Part shown: positions 4,814-52,536 of the stretch, piece after piece
Numbering within the stretch: the stretch's first letter is position 1
Layout of the letters: the number at the start of each line of letters is the position of its first letter
DNA from: Promethearchaeia archaeon
GTDB taxonomy: Archaea > Asgardarchaeota > Lokiarchaeia > Sigyniarchaeales > SOKP01
Direction of reading: 5' to 3'
NCBI GenBank assembly: GCA_029856105.1
Contig: JAHQWH010000015.1
Location: 32,001 to 96,000 of the forward strand
DNA: 64,000 nucleotides
The notes under the pieces: model-generated
The model's input: only the letters and a program-made list of their open reading frames with translations
What the model was told of the DNA's origin: nothing
Databases searched by the model: none
Made by a program: the position numbers and the translations under genes

Positions 4814-6211
4814 ATGGGAGGATTATTCGGAGTTTTTTCAAATAAAGATTGTATTAATGATTTATTTTACGGAACAGATTATCATTCACATCTGGGAACT
4901 AAAAGAGGGGGTTTGGCTGTAAAAAACTCTGGTGGTTTTCAAAGGTTCATCAAGGATATCACGACGAGCCAATTTAGATCTAAGTTTGATAAGGATATCA
5001 AGAAAATGCATGGAAATAAAGGTATCGGAGTCATTAGTGACTACGAAGATCAACCTTTAATTATCAGTTCGCGCTTAGGTGTTTTTGCCATTTCAACAGT
5101 AGGTAAAATTAATAACATAGAAGAACTCGCAAGCGAAGCCTTACAAAATGGAACTCATTTCTCAGAAATGCATGGAGGAGAAATTAACCCTACAGAAATG
5201 GTAGCAACAATAATTAGCCAAGCTGCTACATTTGAAGAAGGTATTCAAAAGGTTCAAGCTATGATCTATGGTTCTTGTACCATTCTTATCTTAACTGATG
5301 AAGGTATATTCGCTGCGCGCGATTCGCTAGGTAGAACGCCTCTCGTTATAGGTGAAAAGCCCGGTTCTTATGCTGTTGCAATGGAAACTTGTGCGTTCCC
5401 AAACCTTGGTTATAAAATCACAAAATATCTAGGACCTGGAGAAATCGTTTTTCTAAGTGAAAAGGGTTTCGAACAAAAGGTTGCACCAGGTAATAGATTG
5501 CAGATTTGTGCTTTCTTATGGGTCTACTATGGATATCCTGCTTCCAATTATGAAGGGATAAATGTTGAATCTGTACGGTATAAATGTGGTGCTTATCTAC
5601 GGAGAGAGGATGAACTGGAGATTGATCTCATAGCAGGGATCCCAGATTCTGGTACAGCTCATGGATTAGGTTATGCTAACGAAGCACATCTTCCTTATGT
5701 ACGACCCTTTGTAAAGTATACGCCAACATGGCCTCGAAGTTTCATGCCTCAGGAACAATCCATTAGAGATACCGTCGCAAAGATGAAACTTATACCGATT
5801 GAAGAACTTATCACGGACAAGCGTCTTCTTTTTTGCGAGGACTCAATCGTGAGAGGCACGCAATTGAGAAGGCAAGTTGAGAGGTTGTTTGAATCGGGGG
5901 CAAAAGAAGTACACATGAGACCTGCTTGTCCTCCACTTGTTTACGGGTGTAAATTTTTAAACTTCTCTCGATCTAGTTCTGAATTAGATTTAGCAGGAAG
6001 ATGGGCCATTAAAGAATTAATTGGAAAGGATCTCGAAAATCCCGTAGAGTATACCAATCCTGAGTCTGATAATTATAAAGCAATGGTTAATGTTATACGC
6101 GAAAAGTTGCATTTAACGACATTAAAATATCAGAAGCTAGAAAACCTAGTTAAAGCTATTGGATTACCTAAAGAAAAACTGTGTACCTATTGTTGGGATG
6201 GCGTAGAATAG
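4814..6211 (+). CDS. Amidophosphoribosyltransferase-like protein lacking the N-terminal catalytic Cys
   Basis: PurF fold motifs (ARDSLG, IPDSG, EDSIVRGT, C-terminal CTYC) but begins MGGLFG. Confidence 0.85.
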   Translation: MGGLFGVFSNKDCINDLFYGTDYHSHLGTKRGGLAVKNSGGFQRFIKDITTSQFRSKFDKDIKKMHGNKGIGVISDYEDQPLIISSRLGVFAISTVGKINNIEELASEALQNGTHFSEMHGGEINPTEMVATIISQAATFEEGIQKVQAMIYGSCTILILTDEGIFAARDSLGRTPLVIGEKPGSYAVAMETCAFPNLGYKITKYLGPGEIVFLSEKGFEQKVAPGNRLQICAFLWVYYGYPASNYEGINVESVRYKCGAYLRREDELEIDLIAGIPDSGTAHGLGYANEAHLPYVRPFVKYTPTWPRSFMPQEQSIRDTVAKMKLIPIEELITDKRLLFCEDSIVRGTQLRRQVERLFESGAKEVHMRPACPPLVYGCKFLNFSRSSSELDLAGRWAIKELIGKDLENPVEYTNPESDNYKAMVNVIREKLHLTTLKYQKLENLVKAIGLPKEKLCTYCWDGVE

Positions 6212-45418: not shown

Positions 45419-46924
45419 TTAAGGATCGTTCCTAAAGGGATGACGCGCATTTTCAGCGTTTTGAATACCGTCATCTACCGTTGGTAACCCTTCCATAGCC
45501 TTTCGAATGGCGTTTCTTGTAGCTTTATAGTTATTAATAAATACGCGTTTTCGAGCGCTCGCGCTAGGATGTACAAATACATTTACAATTATTACGATAT
45601 CCTCTGCGGCTTCTTTAGGAAGAATTCCATCCTCTACGCATTTCATTACCGCTTTTGCTACTGCTGCTTGAGCAGGACCATAAGTTAAACTTGCGTGGCG
45701 CATGGAAGTTATTTTAACAGTAGGGATCATAACTGTCGCAGGTTTGACTTGCATGTTTGGTTCGAGAATCACCTGTAACCCTTCACGCCCTTTCGCGGGA
45801 TGTGTTAAAGCACGAGCATAAGCATCACCTACGGGTCCCTTCTTATTTCCTATTAAAAGATCAATATGTGCTAACTCTGCTCTACTGCCAACGAGCGATT
45901 CACCAACTTTTAAGCTGAAATCAGAGATTTTTTCAGGTGTAACACCCACTGCGTAAAAACGGCTCGTTAATTCTTTATCATCTATCTCGAACTTAACTTC
46001 TTTCTTTTCGATATATCCTAACTTTTCAAGTTCAACTCTAAATTCGTCTTGGAGTTCGTAGGAAAGAGCGTCTCCTAAAATGATCGGGCGTCTAGTTGTG
46101 CCTACTGGAACGCCCATCAAATTCAAGCACTCTTTGGCACCTAAAGCTCCAGAATTGATTAGCATTCGAGCTAACTTTTGTACTTTTTTTTGTAGAGTCT
46201 GTGCTTCAAGTAACCGATTGTTTTTTACATGGTCGTAAATTTCGAGCCATACTTTAGGAATAACATTAGCAGAACCAAGTATGCAACCCGCAGCACCACC
46301 AGCTAAAGCACCTAATACATTTTCGTCCCACCCTATTAGAACGGAAATTTTATCACTTACTTTCTCTAAAAGCGCAGAGAAATATTTGTAGTCACCGCTA
46401 GAATCCTTTATCGCAACGAAATTATCAGTATCAACAAGATCTTCTACAACAGTCCAAGGTAATTCTACCCCCGTACAGACGGGAATATTGTACAACACCA
46501 ACGGTATATCGGTTTTTTCTGCGATCCTAAAATAATGGTCATACAACCCTTTTGCCTTAGGTTTGAGATAATAGGGTGTTACGATTATAGCCGCGTCTGC
46601 ACCGATGTCCGTTGCAGCTTTAGTAGCATCAATTACCAATTTTGTTCCAGTTTCTCCAGTCCCAGCAATTACAGGAACTCTACCATTCGTTTCATCGACG
46701 ACTATTTCTATAACTTTCAAACGTTCCTCAAAAGTCATGTTAACGAACTCTCCAGTCGTTCCTACCGGAACAAGGCCCGTAACTCCTTGATCTATGAGAT
46801 GGTTTACTAAATTTCTAAGGTTTTCTTCGTTAATTGATTCATCTTCTTTATTAAAAGGAGTTACTAATGCGGGCATAACTCCTGTTGGTCTAAAATCAAA
46901 TTTTCCCATTTTAATTAACCTCAA
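45419..46924 (-). CDS. DapA-family aldolase fused to formaldehyde-activating enzyme (Fae)
   Basis: GTTGE, YNIP, IKDSSG; C-terminal VGESLVG...AHIDLLIG, KP.T, GPAQAAVAKAV, VFVHP, NY.AT..AI. Confidence 0.9.
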   Translation of the reverse strand: MRLIKMGKFDFRPTGVMPALVTPFNKEDESINEENLRNLVNHLIDQGVTGLVPVGTTGEFVNMTFEERLKVIEIVVDETNGRVPVIAGTGETGTKLVIDATKAATDIGADAAIIVTPYYLKPKAKGLYDHYFRIAEKTDIPLVLYNIPVCTGVELPWTVVEDLVDTDNFVAIKDSSGDYKYFSALLEKVSDKISVLIGWDENVLGALAGGAAGCILGSANVIPKVWLEIYDHVKNNRLLEAQTLQKKVQKLARMLINSGALGAKECLNLMGVPVGTTRRPIILGDALSYELQDEFRVELEKLGYIEKKEVKFEIDDKELTSRFYAVGVTPEKISDFSLKVGESLVGSRAELAHIDLLIGNKKGPVGDAYARALTHPAKGREGLQVILEPNMQVKPATVMIPTVKITSMRHASLTYGPAQAAVAKAVMKCVEDGILPKEAAEDIVIIVNVFVHPSASARKRVFINNYKATRNAIRKAMEGLPTVDDGIQNAENARHPFRNDP

Positions 46925-46943: not shown

Positions 46944-48236
46944 CTAACGATGATGTAAATTTTTAGCAGCTATAAATGTAAGTCCCTTTTTGGTTAAAGC
47001 TTCAGCTGTAGTATTAATAGCTTCATATCGGTCGAGAAGGTTTACGCGTAATGCTTCCCATATTCCCGCTTCTTCAATAGCCTCCTTAGTCATGAAATAT
47101 TCAAGAATATCCGTAGGATGTTCCCGTTTTTCGTCAACATCAACATTTGCTCCCTCATGTTTCGCACTTACATTCTTAACTTTCTTAGCTAATTCCATTA
47201 ATTCGTCTCGGCGGTCATAAGGCTGCCTTACAATACTTTTCCATGTTTCAGTTATATGGTGTTCTATTCGTACTACATCTTCAAAGCCAAATTCTTTTCT
47301 TATATAGGCAGTTACTTCAATAGTTTCGTTATTAACTGAATTGGCAAGGTTAAAGCCAATCAAGGGGCTAGTTCCATCTTCACGGGCAAACAATTTGGCA
47401 GTCATTAACGTCCATAGACAAGCGTAAGGATTATCGTTTCCTAAATAGACTGAAATTTTAAACTCATTATTAATACCAAGTTTATGGATGATATAGCCCA
47501 ATAAAACGGTACCAAGATTCACATTAAGAACTTGTTGGATTCCGTAGTTAGTATAATAATAAAGATATTCATCAAACCATTTTAATGGAAAGTTGTTTGG
47601 CATTCCAACGCCTCCAAAATAGCCAGTAATAGTTTCAGGTCCACCAAGATGTACATTTACAGGCATACCATCTGGACCAGGGGCAGTTCCCTTAGTGTCA
47701 AGAGTTTCGACCCAGGTCGAACCAATAATTTGCATTGCCGCAGCCATAGCTAGTAAATCCCCGTCTTCTTCCTGTTCTTTCATGTATCTCACGCGAATAA
47801 TTCTACCAGGTATTATCTTTTGATTTTCAACGGCGTCTCTTACCATATCCATCAAGAAAGGAAAGTATTGACACGCAGAAAGTTCTAATGTTATAGCATA
47901 GTCTTCGTCGAAAGTCATTTCAGATGTTTTGTCACCTAAAATCTTTTTTCTATAATCTGCTATGCTAATAAAAGAATTATTGTCGCGTTGAGAAATTAAC
48001 CACTCAATATCCTTAACATATTCTGGCTTTTTCTTTTTTAACTTTTCGAGCAAGTTTTCTACTTTACTGGCCTCTTCTGCCTTTCTATTAATCTCTTCTA
48101 TTCCGCCATATTTATCTACTATATCTAAAAGATCGTTTATCAATGGATTTTTTTCGTCCAATAAGAAATCGTTTATTACTTTTAATGCGTCGTCTGGAAT
48201 TTTCAATTTTTTTCTTAAATCGTTCATTTTTATCAT
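46944..48236 (-). CDS. Conserved hypothetical protein
   Basis: 430-aa ORF with enzyme-like Gly-rich motif NVHLGGPETITGYFGGVG; co-oriented with dapA-fae. Confidence 0.75.
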   Translation of the reverse strand: MIKMNDLRKKLKIPDDALKVINDFLLDEKNPLINDLLDIVDKYGGIEEINRKAEEASKVENLLEKLKKKKPEYVKDIEWLISQRDNNSFISIADYRKKILGDKTSEMTFDEDYAITLELSACQYFPFLMDMVRDAVENQKIIPGRIIRVRYMKEQEEDGDLLAMAAAMQIIGSTWVETLDTKGTAPGPDGMPVNVHLGGPETITGYFGGVGMPNNFPLKWFDEYLYYYTNYGIQQVLNVNLGTVLLGYIIHKLGINNEFKISVYLGNDNPYACLWTLMTAKLFAREDGTSPLIGFNLANSVNNETIEVTAYIRKEFGFEDVVRIEHHITETWKSIVRQPYDRRDELMELAKKVKNVSAKHEGANVDVDEKREHPTDILEYFMTKEAIEEAGIWEALRVNLLDRYEAINTTAEALTKKGLTFIAAKNLHHR

Positions 48237-48435: not shown

Positions 48436-49794
48436 ATGTATAAGTATAAAGTATCGATTTTAGGGACTGGATTTATCGGTTTATGTAGTGCTGCGTGTTT
48501 CGCTGGGAAAGATATACAAGTCTTAGCGTCCACTCATAACGAAAAGAAAGCTAAAATGATTAACGAAGGAAAGGCCCCCTTTTACGAAGCGGATTTACAA
48601 GAAATAATGGACGATATTAAAGCTAACAAACCAGAACTATTACACTGCTTGCTGGATCCCGTAAAAGCGGTGCTAGAAACGGATATTTCTATGATTACTC
48701 AAGGTACTCCCATGCGAGAAGATAAAAGCATAGACTTAGACTACATTGAGAGCACAGCTAGGGAAATAGGAGAGGCTTTAAAGCAAAAGGATAAATATCA
48801 CTTAGTTGTTGTAAGATCTACGGTAGTTCCAGGTACTACAAGGAATTTGATAGGAAAAATAATTACTGAGATATCTGGAAAAGTTCCTGGAAAAGATTTT
48901 GGCTTATGCATGCAACCCGAATTTTTAGCGGAGGGCCGTTCGATTGAAGATACACTTCACCCAGATAGGATCGTAATAGGTGAAATTGACGAAACGAGTG
49001 GCGCTATGCTCCAAGAGTTTTACGAATATTTCTATGGCGAACACTTACAAAATTGCCCTATTTTAAGAATGAATCTAGAAAGCGCTGAACTAGTTAAATA
49101 TGGCAACAACTGCCTTTTATCTACTAAAATCAGCTATGCAAATGAATTCGCGAATCTTGCTGAGTTAGTGCCAAATGTAGATGTAGCTCAAGTTATGAAA
49201 GGAGTAGGTTTAGATTACAGATTAAATTCTCGATTTTTAAATGCTGGAGTTGGTTTTGGAGGTTCTTGTTTTCATAAAGATGTGAACGCAATAAAAGCAT
49301 GGTCTAAATCAAAAGGATATACTTCAAGATTATTAGAAGCGGTTCTAGATATAAATGATGATCAAGCAATTCATATTGTAGATATTGCCGAGGAATTAGC
49401 AGGAAAATTAGAGGGTAAAAAAGTTACGCTATTAGGTCTTGCTTTCAAACCAGGTACAGATGATATGCGAGAAGCTGCTAGCATTAGAGTATTTAGCGAA
49501 TTAAGGAAAAGGGGAGTGACTGATATAATTGGATATGATCCTAAAGCTCTTAAAACTGCAGAAGAAGAATTAGGAAATAAAATTATATATGTTAATTCCA
49601 TCGAAGAAGCATTAAAAGACTCTGAATGCGCCTTATTAATAACAGAATGGGATGAGTTTAAAAATTTAAAACCTAAAGATTTCAAAACATATATGAAAAC
49701 GCCCAATTTAATTGATGGAAGAAGAATTTATGATTATGATCAATTCAATAAATCTATACCTTTCAGAGCAATTGGTAGAATAAATTTAGAATAA
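48436..49794 (+). CDS. UDP-glucose/GDP-mannose dehydrogenase family protein
   Basis: GTGFIG, STVVPGT, PEFLAEG, GFGGSCF, GLAFKPGTDDMRE. Confidence 0.93.
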   Translation: MYKYKVSILGTGFIGLCSAACFAGKDIQVLASTHNEKKAKMINEGKAPFYEADLQEIMDDIKANKPELLHCLLDPVKAVLETDISMITQGTPMREDKSIDLDYIESTAREIGEALKQKDKYHLVVVRSTVVPGTTRNLIGKIITEISGKVPGKDFGLCMQPEFLAEGRSIEDTLHPDRIVIGEIDETSGAMLQEFYEYFYGEHLQNCPILRMNLESAELVKYGNNCLLSTKISYANEFANLAELVPNVDVAQVMKGVGLDYRLNSRFLNAGVGFGGSCFHKDVNAIKAWSKSKGYTSRLLEAVLDINDDQAIHIVDIAEELAGKLEGKKVTLLGLAFKPGTDDMREAASIRVFSELRKRGVTDIIGYDPKALKTAEEELGNKIIYVNSIEEALKDSECALLITEWDEFKNLKPKDFKTYMKTPNLIDGRRIYDYDQFNKSIPFRAIGRINLE

Positions 49795-50036: not shown

Positions 50037-50936
50037 TTAAGGTTTCAAAATCAAATTTATCTTTTCTAATCTTTTTTCTCTTGACATGCTGTTTTTTACT
50101 GGATTAAAACTCCCGTAAAGACTTTTATGATAAACTTCTCTTATTTCTTGGTAAAAAATTCCTATCGTAAAACGATGTGCCTGCCTAGCAATCTTTAAAA
50201 CCTCATCTTTCGACTTACCATTATTATCTATATATTCAATATTATCTTTAAATTCCTCCCATTTATGATAGGGCATGGCAGGTTGCAGGATTTCGATAAA
50301 GGAAAAGCCTTCATGCTCTATAGCTTTTACAAGAGTGTTCGTTAAATGTTTAACTTCACCAGCATAACATCTTGCCACGAATGTTGCTCCTACTTCAATA
50401 AGTAAAGATATGGGATTGAAAGGAATCTCAAAACTTCCCTTTGGAGTTGATGGGCCTTTCCAACCCTCTTGAGTTAAAGGAGAAAACTGACCTGTTGTGA
50501 GAGCATAGACTCCATTATTATGCAGTATCATAGTGATATCCATGTTGCGTTTTGCTGCAAAGAGAGTATGGGCTAACCCTTCTCCTAATCCACTCCCATC
50601 GCCAGAAAAAGTTATTACTTTTAAATTAGGATTAGAAATTTTGAATCCAGAAGCAGTGGTTATTTCTCTTCCATGCAATGAATAAATTCCACTTAAATTA
50701 AGATAATCAAACATTTTCGCATGGCACCCTATACCCGCTGTCATAACAATATTCTCTCTTTTGATCCCTCTTTGCTCTAATAGAGGAATTGCATTTCTTA
50801 TCGCAGTAAAAATTCCAAAATTTCCGCATCCTGGACACCATGTAACTTCAGCATAAGTTTTTAGATCTTCCATCTTATTGAAGCACCTCCTTAATCTTTT
50901 TTGATAATTCAATTGGATCAAATGGGCGTCCATCAT
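50037..50936 (-). CDS. 2-oxoacid:ferredoxin oxidoreductase beta subunit (true start probably near 50873)
   Basis: WCPGCG, GIGC, GDG, NNGVYALT.GQ.SP. Confidence 0.92.
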   Translation of the reverse strand: MMDAHLIQLNYQKRLRRCFNKMEDLKTYAEVTWCPGCGNFGIFTAIRNAIPLLEQRGIKRENIVMTAGIGCHAKMFDYLNLSGIYSLHGREITTASGFKISNPNLKVITFSGDGSGLGEGLAHTLFAAKRNMDITMILHNNGVYALTTGQFSPLTQEGWKGPSTPKGSFEIPFNPISLLIEVGATFVARCYAGEVKHLTNTLVKAIEHEGFSFIEILQPAMPYHKWEEFKDNIEYIDNNGKSKDEVLKIARQAHRFTIGIFYQEIREVYHKSLYGSFNPVKNSMSREKRLEKINLILKP

Positions 50937-52536
50937 ACTTTTTAATCGTAGTTCTTATTTTTAACCTTGCTTTTTCTTTTAAAAGAGTTGTAAATTGTCC
51001 TGTAGAGCTTTGTTCAATTACTATATTATCTTGATTTTTAAATTCCGCTAATTCCCAAGTTGGTAATGGACTTAAAAATATTGGTTGAACGATTGTAGGG
51101 TTTAATCCCCCATACCTTAGAGCTTCTAAAACGCTCATGTAAGTCGAACCATACGCAAAAAGATTGGTGTTCATCTCTCCTCGAATAATATTAACAGTAT
51201 ATTGACTCTTTAAATATTCTACAAGCGCTTTAAGTTTTTTATTTCTCTTGTCATGCATTTTTGCTATCATCTCGGCATTCTCAGTCGTTACGCCAAATTC
51301 GTCGTGTTCGTAGCTATTCCACTTAATTACTTCTTTCGAGGGTGGAAATAACATTGGAGAAATTCCATCTTCAGCGTTATGATATCTTTTATAATTTTCC
51401 CCTTGATACATTTTAGGTTTTGCCCATTTTGCCTTATCTACATCGATATCAATTGTCATGCTACATTCTGATAAGTGTTTCTCTGTGAGCAGAATTCCTG
51501 GTGTTTGAAACTTCCAAACAAGATCTAGCATTTCCGCAGTTAAATAATAAGAGTCTTCTATCGTTCCCGGAGATGCTACTATTCGCAAAAAGTCACCGTG
51601 ACCAGCAGAAAGAGCAAAACTTAGATCAGCTTGTTCGGTATAAGTAGGTACCCCTGTAGCAGGTCCTGGTCTTTGTGATAAGACTATGAGAATAGGAGCT
51701 TCAGTAATCCCTGCTAAGGAAATACCTTCGGTCATAAGCGCGAAACCTCCACCACTGGTTCCAACCATTGATCTTGCCCCAGTAAATGTAGACCCAATTG
51801 CCATGTTAATTACAGCAAGTTCGCTTTCAGCATGAACAACTGCTAACCCAAAGTTTTCTGTTTGCTTTGCTAAAAAGTGCAATATTGAAGATGCTGGCGT
51901 CATAGGATATCCAAAATACGTATCTAAACCGCCAGCTATAGCTCCCAGACTTATTGATTCGTTTCCTGTAATAATTGGTCTTACTTTTTCTCCTTTAGTT
52001 AATAAAAATTTACCTTGACACCCGCCTTTTACCATATCGTAGATGGTATTTGCAAATTTAACGTTATCTTCGATACCTCTTGGATATTGATTCTTTATAC
52101 TTTCATTCATTTGCTCTTTTTTGAATCCTATTGCTGATGCTAAGATTGCTACAGCCCCTACACCGTACATCAGGTTTTTCATGGGATATTTTTCAGCTTC
52201 TGAACTGAATGGAATTCCAACGCCATCAACATCTTCTAGTTCGTCTGAGTTATAGATAATAAGTCCTCCATCAGCTAGATCGTTAATGTGAGTTTCGCAA
52301 CTTCGCTTATCAAAGTTAACTAGAAGATCCGCTTTCATGTAATAGCTACTAATCCATCTAGTGGAAGTGCTAACTATAGAAAAATTGTGTCCTCCTCTAA
52401 TTAGGCTCATATAATCGTCCATTTGAAATACACGCTGTCCTATACTAGCAAATATATGAGCTGCCACAGATCCAGCTTTTTTTACGCCTTCTCCCGCCTT
52501 TCCTCCAACCAGAAACGTAAAGATGTCATTAACCAT
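50875..52536 (-). CDS. 2-oxoacid:ferredoxin oxidoreductase alpha subunit (gamma-alpha fusion)
   Basis: GGKAGEG, IRGGHN, YPMTPAS, TSGGG, RPGPATG. Confidence 0.93.
   Translation of the reverse strand: MVNDIFTFLVGGKAGEGVKKAGSVAAHIFASIGQRVFQMDDYMSLIRGGHNFSIVSTSTRWISSYYMKADLLVNFDKRSCETHINDLADGGLIIYNSDELEDVDGVGIPFSSEAEKYPMKNLMYGVGAVAILASAIGFKKEQMNESIKNQYPRGIEDNVKFANTIYDMVKGGCQGKFLLTKGEKVRPIITGNESISLGAIAGGLDTYFGYPMTPASSILHFLAKQTENFGLAVVHAESELAVINMAIGSTFTGARSMVGTSGGGFALMTEGISLAGITEAPILIVLSQRPGPATGVPTYTEQADLSFALSAGHGDFLRIVASPGTIEDSYYLTAEMLDLVWKFQTPGILLTEKHLSECSMTIDIDVDKAKWAKPKMYQGENYKRYHNAEDGISPMLFPPSKEVIKWNSYEHDEFGVTTENAEMIAKMHDKRNKKLKALVEYLKSQYTVNIIRGEMNTNLFAYGSTYMSVLEALRYGGLNPTIVQPIFLSPLPTWELAEFKNQDNIVIEQSSTGQFTTLLKEKARLKIRTTIKKYDGRPFDPIELSKKIKEVLQ

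Follow-up and report, generated by a model that had tools for sequence, protein, structure and literature searches.

A DHDPS-family aldolase fused to a formaldehyde-activating domain in Asgard and other archaea, with a possible role in homoserine supply

The window examined here is a stretch of 64,000 nucleotides from a Lokiarchaeial genome (Promethearchaeia archaeon, order Sigyniarchaeales; assembly GCA_029856105.1, contig JAHQWH010000015.1, positions 32,001 to 96,000 of the forward strand). One gene on its minus strand encodes a class I (Schiff-base) aldolase of the dihydrodipicolinate synthase (DHDPS, DapA) family fused to a formaldehyde-activating enzyme (Fae) domain. The product of this gene is a distinct pyruvate aldolase joined to Fae and not DapA, and its public annotation as "4-hydroxy-tetrahydrodipicolinate synthase" is wrong. 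The fusion is a new combination within known enzyme families, and a literature search found no paper on a DapA/DHDPS-Fae fusion or on missing homoserine dehydrogenase (Hom) in the lineages that carry it. The strongest new evidence on its role is a strong anti-correlation with Hom in two phyla. With a probability of about 0.4, we propose that the fusion links pyruvate and formaldehyde derived from methylene-tetrahydromethanopterin (methylene-H4MPT) with 4-hydroxy-2-oxobutanoate (HOB), mainly feeding homoserine.

The reading frame at 45419..46924 on the minus strand is open, with 501 codons from a TTG, and examination of the frame with Pfam and NCBIfam models bore out the aldolase and the complete Fae domain that an initial annotation, made from the letters alone, had placed there. 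The end of the gene stands as annotated, whereas its start should probably be moved from the TTG at 46924 to an ATG at 46909. The 120 closest orthologs are 495–496 amino acids (aa) long and begin at the position corresponding to residue 6 of the 501-aa protein (the TTG-based numbering used for the fusion throughout), and a GAGGT motif stands upstream of the ATG at the spacing given in Table 1. On these two grounds the true gene is most likely the shorter one, and the TTG most likely sits within the ribosome-binding region rather than being a start codon. A structural model computed with AlphaFold2 (AF2) from 31 family members (mean pLDDT 82) shows a TIM barrel (pLDDT >90) whose C-terminal helices reach about residue 305; a disordered linker (residues 310–337) then leads to a separate Fae fold (residues 338–490). 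Across relatives the linker varies in length and contains gaps (alignment A1). Among solved structures, the aldolase domain is closest to M. jannaschii DHDPS (2yxg, 8e-52) and the second domain to M. extorquens Fae (1y5y, 1e-30 over residues 6–166). The Fae domain passes the equivalog_domain model TIGR03126 (193.2 bits vs a cut-off of 118.05, profile positions 2–160 of 160), and its motifs AHIDLL, EPN..KP, YGPAQ and the ARHPF tail all align with 1y5y. The His and Asp of AHIDL are presumably catalytic, as in the M. extorquens Fae structure. Both domains are joined in one protein in more than 120 clusters at 84–98% identity and in about a dozen clusters at 50% identity, so that the fusion is not an accident of this assembly (3.66 Mb, 92% complete, 6% contaminated).

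The case against DapA begins with the active site. The Schiff-base aldolase residues, described as intact in the initial annotation, are confirmed by the translation and by alignments (GTTGE at 55–59, PYY at 117–119, Tyr145 and Lys173), and they include the DHDPS catalytic residues Lys173, Tyr145, Tyr118-Tyr119 and Thr56-Thr57. Nearly all of the approximately 100 members of the fusion family carry the Schiff-base lysine motif KDSSG. The Arg that binds aspartate semialdehyde (ASA) in DHDPS had been reported as missing and is indeed gone: the motif YNIPVCTG (145–152) has Cys150 at the position where 2yxg aligns as lynvpsrtav, and none of the approximately 100 fusion-family members from 86 loci has Arg there. 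It is very improbable that the public name is nevertheless correct and that the protein is a true 4-hydroxy-tetrahydrodipicolinate synthase which happens to carry Fae. That name has some basis, as the nearest solved structures are of DHDPS and the fusion scores 232.6 bits on the dapA equivalog model TIGR00674 (cut-off 206.15). The pass is marginal, however, and fusion-family proteins in general score just over the cut-off (206–257 bits), which explains the name given by annotation pipelines. The separate dapA whose presence had been suggested as a check was found on another contig of the same genome; it is of the YNVPSRTG type, scores 334.1 bits on the same model and directly adjoins dapB, to which the fusion is not linked. 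A FastTree phylogeny of aldolase domains groups every fusion into a single clade (support 100), separate from the free DHDPS proteins, which include the DapA of this genome. Finally, aspartate-semialdehyde dehydrogenase (Asd) was found in only 2 of 16 fusion-bearing Bathyarchaeia compared with 39 of 55 others, so that 14 of the 16 carriers would have no ASA for the condensation. Neither is the protein a Fae-Hps, as it matches the Fae-Hps model NF009833 over its Fae part only (positions 2–161 of 392; 159.8 bits vs a cut-off of 274); the genome also encodes a separate, canonical Fae-Hps (426 aa). A third DHDPS-family domain of this genome (76 bits) makes up the N-terminal part of a protein of 693 aa on contig C191 (L003:1492-3573), the C-terminal half of which appears kinase-like by eye only; its gene follows a 2-hydroxyacid dehydrogenase/class II aldolase fusion.

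The distribution of Hom (PF00742) relative to the fusion was examined in samples of 151 Asgard and 71 Bathyarchaeial genomes. Hom occurs in 10 of 70 Asgard fusion carriers vs 46 of 81 other genomes (Fisher p 5e-8), counts which depend on a hand-set criterion for the fusion (a strong match or one to both domains, with genes cut off by a contig end also counted); in 4 of 18 carriers vs 7 of 8 non-carriers of the window's own family (p 0.003); and in 1 of 16 Bathyarchaeial carriers vs 44 of 55 others (p 1e-7), and all three p values overstate the signal because related genomes are not independent, which tells against our proposal to that extent. In the window's family, Hom alone is found in two genera, the fusion alone in two others, and the window's own genus is mixed, so that the state flips both between and within genera. 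Hom was not found in the window's own genome, which is 92% complete and in which Asd was found, nor in most fusion-bearing congeners. Three complete Bathyarchaeial carrier chromosomes lack Hom, and the one of them included in the Asd sample lacks Asd as well. Of five Asgard carriers without Hom, four have a threonine synthase ThrC that passes its cut-off; in the window's genome it stays below (152 bits, cut-off 167). One non-carrier Bathyarchaeial genome contains an aldolase gene remnant with four stop codons at 0.7 kb from Hom (G186:C35:3542-4513, 5190-5705).

The host makes and uses H4MPT, as its genome encodes RFAP synthase (315 bits) and Mch (357 bits); Mch also occurs in 5 of 5 further archaeal carriers tested.

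A second line of evidence comes from the partner gene, here called P0122, which lies immediately upstream of the fusion in the window and is probably co-transcribed with it. P0122 adjoins the fusion at all Lokiarchaeial loci examined (same strand, upstream), at about 27 Bathyarchaeial loci (mostly divergent, 130–300 bp apart), at a Heimdallarchaeota-labelled locus, at Bathyarchaeial loci with tandem fusion paralogs (see below) and at one Anaerolineae locus, a linkage that spans three phyla and several orientations. Within the window's family the presence of P0122 coincides exactly with that of the fusion, even inside the genus. The initial annotation had connected the fusion with the fwd pathway encoded nearby; this proximity holds in Lokiarchaeia and is not conserved beyond them, and P0122 is the only neighbour that the fusion keeps across phyla.

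The company that P0122 keeps elsewhere is informative. In two fusion-less Asgard families (L104, L105, L110, L111) it heads a tight operon that also encodes a class I aminotransferase, a genuine Hom (NF004912, 424 bits vs 373) and an aldehyde:ferredoxin oxidoreductase (AOR), to which a PatB C-S lyase is added in L105 and L110. In another fusion-less Asgard family it overlaps a divergent free DHDPS-like gene by 1 nt, and about 1 kb separates it from a ThrC-family gene in a Thorarchaeota-type genome. Homologs 55–67% identical to the archaeal proteins occur in 13 of 121 Chloroflexota genomes; at 2 of 10 loci they directly follow PanB, and at another they face Asd. These partners are enzymes which join a one-carbon (C1) unit to a 2-oxoacid or which belong to the ASA/homoserine node, and they suggest that P0122 acts at a 4-hydroxy-2-oxoacid/homoserine node, perhaps as part of the pathway proposed below. 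P0122 was also considered as the missing homoserine kinase: only 11 of the 151 Asgard genomes have a canonical ThrB above the cut-off, but ThrB and P0122 are both absent in 77 and both present in 2, a pattern that speaks neither for nor against this role. The AOR within an aspartate-family operon is unusual and could oxidise ASA or reduce aspartate.

A family search over 1.84 billion representative sequences returned full-length fusions in about a dozen clusters at 50% identity. Genome scans located them in Lokiarchaeia, other Asgard families, many Bathyarchaeia, Thermoplasmata, Korarchaeota- or Thermoproteota-labelled contigs and several metagenome-assembled genomes (MAGs) of Anaerolineae/Chloroflexota. 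The family exists in two forms, either a single complete gene, as in the window, or tandem A/B paralogs. The single form, found also in most Bathyarchaeia, a Heimdallarchaeota-labelled locus and a Borrarchaeum locus, keeps every Fae motif (TIGR03126, 193–219 bits). In the tandem pairs the downstream A gene retains AH(I/V)DLL and the ARHPF tail and has lost EPN..KP..GPAQ; in the upstream B gene it is the middle motifs EPN..KP..GPxQ that remain, the His motif and the tail being lost. Both are nested within the family tree, which places their origin in the duplication of an ancestor of the single type. The active site of Fae lies between subunits, and the complementary decay of motifs thus suggests that A and B form a heteromer with one composite Fae-type site. 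In one Bathyarchaeial chromosome which has Hom, a fusion gene is frameshifted within its Fae domain (L082:6001-7486), perhaps a pseudogene or a sequencing error; it was left out of the evidence.

Table 1. Features of the aldolase-Fae gene and its partner in the window, and related loci elsewhere (window positions unless a locus is named)
Feature	Position	Strand	Basis and remarks
Aldolase-Fae fusion gene	45419..46909	-	496 aa from ATG 46909; 501 aa from TTG 46924; ortholog starts and ribosome-binding site
Complete Fae domain	45434..45907	-	Residues 340-497; Pfam PF08714, E 3.6e-58, profile 1-158/159
Flexible interdomain linker	45914..45997	-	Residues 310-337; AF2 pLDDT <50
Class I (Schiff-base) aldolase domain, DHDPS family	46079..46888	-	Residues 13-282; Pfam PF00701, E 1.5e-74
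Lys173 codon, Schiff-base lysine in IKDSSG	46406..46408	-	Invariant among 31 family members (alignment A4)
Cys150 codon, position of the ASA-binding Arg of DHDPS (E. coli R138)	46475..46477	-	Alignment to DHDPS structures
GAGGT ribosome-binding site	46918..46922	-	8 nt before ATG 46909, within the 34-nt spacer after the P0122 stop; sequence read
Partner gene P0122, 430 aa, N-terminal helical bundle and TIM barrel	46944..48236	-	AF2 pLDDT 87
Tandem B/A pairs	L008:5528-8479, L009:5628-8479, L010:5715-8398, L011:5544-8449, many of L085-L103		
Chloroflexota P0122 neighbours	L123:2880-3737, L126:2864-3730, L122:1561-2940		PanB in the first two, Asd in the third

In the mechanism that we propose, the fusion would act as a bifunctional enzyme moving a C1 unit between methylene-H4MPT and C3 of pyruvate. 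The Fae domain would interconvert methylene-H4MPT and water with H4MPT and formaldehyde, and the aldolase would reversibly join formaldehyde to the Lys173 enamine of pyruvate, yielding HOB, while the flexible tether would keep the formaldehyde local, as in Fae-Hps. An aminotransferase would then interconvert HOB and homoserine. Homoserine for threonine and methionine could in this way be supplied without Hom; in Bathyarchaeia the whole aspartate-semialdehyde branch could be bypassed, and P0122 would take part at the same node. By our pathway accounting, two ATP and two NAD(P)H would be saved for each homoserine made in this way instead of from oxaloacetate through aspartate and ASA. Four points, namely HOB as the substrate, the involvement of H4MPT, formaldehyde channelling and the reaction direction, are what we infer from the domain make-up, the catalytic motifs, the loss of the Arg, the separate clade, the gene linkage and the phyletic complementarity; membership of a HOB-aldolase class in particular is suggested by the domain fusion, the gene linkage and the complementarity with Hom and Asd. 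HOB had already been put forward in the initial annotation, and this idea has gained comparative support from the neighbours of P0122 (aminotransferase, Hom, AOR, ThrC-like, Asd, PanB) and from the anti-correlation with Hom. Cleavage of HOB into catabolism, the direction preferred there, has not fared as well: the phyletic pattern favours formation, as a supply of the keto acid of homoserine, which we offer as a proposal, whereas Fae thermodynamics and the analogy with Fae-Hps favour cleavage and capture. The link of the fusion to the homoserine node, judged from sequence comparisons, thus appears well supported. A wider claim is put forward more tentatively, namely that Bathyarchaeia, many Asgard archaea and some Thermoplasmata may make homoserine by an ATP-free route from methylene-H4MPT and pyruvate through HOB, with the Hom/ASA branch displaced and P0122 as a new enzyme of the pathway.

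A number of observations weigh against this proposal. HOB was selected only as the simplest adduct of pyruvate and formaldehyde. At equilibrium Fae strongly favours methylene-H4MPT, and the forming direction would need to be pulled by the aldol step. No aminotransferase gene is linked to the single-gene fusion, and in two Asgard families the fusion occurs but P0122 does not. The fusion and Hom are found together in ten Asgard genomes and are both missing from 35, and Hom is present in 3 of 4 Anaerolineae carriers. Lokiarchaeia keep Asd (37 of 41 genomes, the window's own included), in line with their dapA-dapB genes, so that loss of Hom alone would bring them no obvious gain. In one closed Thermoplasmata genome and two Anaerolineae genomes, all of them with tandem A/B forms, neither Mch nor RFAP synthase was found, and the H4MPT claim is therefore limited to the single-gene form. 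Lastly, both paralogs of GCA_003560875.1 (locus L011 in Table 1) lack the Schiff-base Lys (K->A and K->L), and one of them also lacks GTTGE and the YN motif; both genes are nonetheless open.

The same chemistry could run in reverse, HOB being cleaved to pyruvate and formaldehyde and Fae trapping the latter as methylene-H4MPT for oxidation or acetyl-CoA synthesis. HOB would then come from homoserine, from methionine or threonine salvage, or from some other precursor by the action of P0122. This is unlikely in our judgement, although several points speak for it: Fae is thermodynamically directed towards capture, and Fae-Hps generally works this way in archaea; the presence of the fusion within one genus is patchy, as for an accessory function; fusion-less P0122 sits with Hom and AOR, which could oxidise homoserine via ASA to aspartate; and a 2-oxoacid:ferredoxin oxidoreductase is encoded 3 kb away in Lokiarchaeia. 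Catabolism, however, offers no simple reason for a strong anti-correlation with the biosynthetic enzymes Hom and Asd in two phyla or for the retention of ThrC by Hom-less carriers, and the comparison of neighbourhoods found no conserved transporter or homoserine-producing enzyme beside the fusion.

Somewhat less likely still is a different substrate, either another 2-oxoacid donor (2-oxobutanoate, or 2-oxoisovalerate as in PanB) or another aldehyde, serving a cofactor or some other pathway. Acceptors vary widely in the DHDPS family (the NCBIfam matches include the NAL, KDG aldolase and KdgD families), the A/B forms occur without detectable H4MPT genes, and in Chloroflexota P0122 stands beside PanB, which makes the dimethyl analogue of HOB. 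The complementarity with Hom and Asd and the P0122 neighbours Hom, ThrC and Asd point instead to the C4 aspartate-family node, and the fusion is no replacement for PanB, which most carriers possess: it occurs in 10 of 12 genomes of the window's genus and in 24 of 26 and 18 of 19 genomes of two other fusion-bearing Asgard families. PanB was not found in the window's own assembly (92% complete), probably because of an assembly gap. It is improbable that the barrel serves mainly as an oligomerisation scaffold and that the protein is a second Fae for formaldehyde detoxification. The lineage that has kept both genes open without the Schiff-base Lys in either, and without GTTGE and the YN motif in one, would fit such a role, but Lys173, Tyr145 and the threonines of GTTGE persist over deep divergence in almost every one of the approximately 100 members, and the genome already has Fae-Hps. 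Formation of HOB for homoserine supply remains the reading that we prefer.

The nature of P0122 itself was explored by sequence and structure. The family has no match in Pfam (up to E 10), NCBIfam or a sequence/profile search of the PDB, and an Atlas feature search found nothing. Its model contains a Gly-rich loop (residues 183–211) which is highly conserved yet disordered. Foldseek comparison with the PDB returned class II fructose-bisphosphate aldolases (E 1e-4, TM only 0.3–0.48), and VIA-align gave a flat list at Z of about 11–12 (Kce/DUF849, CutC, U32, IspG, chitinases). The Atlas structure search gave a cluster annotated as U32 (TM 0.56/0.75), but the U32-like Cys set is absent by inspection. 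All these fold matches are those of a generic barrel, and P0122 was assigned to none of the families. Since P0122 occupies the position that the B gene has in tandem pairs, it was also considered as a decayed aldolase-Fae paralog; this was rejected, as BLASTP shows no similarity and the model is a helical bundle with a different barrel.

Other genes near the fusion were taken as lineage-specific synteny, namely a TrmI-type methyltransferase downstream in Bathyarchaeia and peroxiredoxin, nitroreductase and DsbH-like genes in Lokiarchaeia. A UDP-glucose/GDP-mannose dehydrogenase-family gene lies adjacent to the system or 2.6–4.4 kb off in Lokiarchaeia (window 48436-49794, plus strand), a Thermoproteota MAG and an Anaerolineae MAG (L077:11916-13283, L096:3-1196), and may be either a chance neighbour or an extra member of the pathway. 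The 2-oxoacid:ferredoxin oxidoreductase of the window is encoded by two subunit genes (POR/POR_N and TPP_enzyme_C; 50037-52536, minus strand) and is also present in L006.

Several known systems resemble the fusion in part. Fae-Hps (bifunctional 5,6,7,8-tetrahydromethanopterin hydro-lyase/3-hexulose-6-phosphate synthase) likewise joins Fae to a carbon–carbon lyase with formaldehyde as substrate or product, in H4MPT-containing archaea; however, its Hps domain is C-terminal and of the orotidine monophosphate (OMP) decarboxylase type, whereas the aldolase of the fusion is N-terminal and of the class I DHDPS family, and its chemistry is that of sugar phosphates instead of the 2-oxoacids proposed here. 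DapA/DHDPS (TIGR00674; 2yxg, 1dhp) has the same fold, the same catalytic Lys, Tyr and Thr and the best sequence match, and differs from the fusion in its ASA-binding Arg, its place outside the fusion clade, its link to dapB and the lack of a Fae domain, while the fusion also occurs in genomes without Asd. The ketopantoate hydroxymethyltransferase PanB (PF02548) makes a 4-hydroxy-2-oxoacid by attaching a C1 unit, carried by a methylene-pterin, to C3 of a 2-oxoacid, the reaction type proposed for the fusion, and beside Chloroflexota P0122 it takes the place held by the fusion in archaea. It is nevertheless unrelated in fold and mechanism, being a metal-dependent single-domain enzyme that uses methylene-tetrahydrofolate directly, and it co-occurs with the fusion. 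In engineered homoserine cycles, pyruvate and formaldehyde are joined to HOB, which endogenous aminotransferases convert to homoserine, and HOB is there a non-native metabolite of E. coli, produced by a class II aldolase with promiscuous activity (PMC8879981). The aldolases of these cycles (e.g., E. coli RhmA) catalyze the same reaction as that proposed for the fusion, although they are class II metal enzymes acting outside their natural role on free formaldehyde.

If the proposal is true, hundreds of archaeal genes named "4-hydroxy-tetrahydrodipicolinate synthase" would be misannotated, and the fusion would be a natural counterpart of the engineered homoserine cycle. It would also provide synthetic methylotrophy, so far dependent on promiscuous aldolases for joining pyruvate and formaldehyde, with a natural enzyme that is dedicated to this step and manages the formaldehyde itself. 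The tandem A/B forms represent a clear case of a duplicated fusion with an interface active site seemingly split between paralogs, and P0122, which is 55–67% identical between Asgard archaea and Chloroflexota and belongs to no assigned family, makes an attractive subject for enzyme discovery. Some of the most abundant archaea in sediments would draw on pyruvate and Wood-Ljungdahl C1 units to build amino acids of the aspartate family, saving ATP and reductant in energy-starved settings, and both the metabolic reconstructions of Asgard archaea and Bathyarchaeia and the isotope-labelling patterns expected of them would change.

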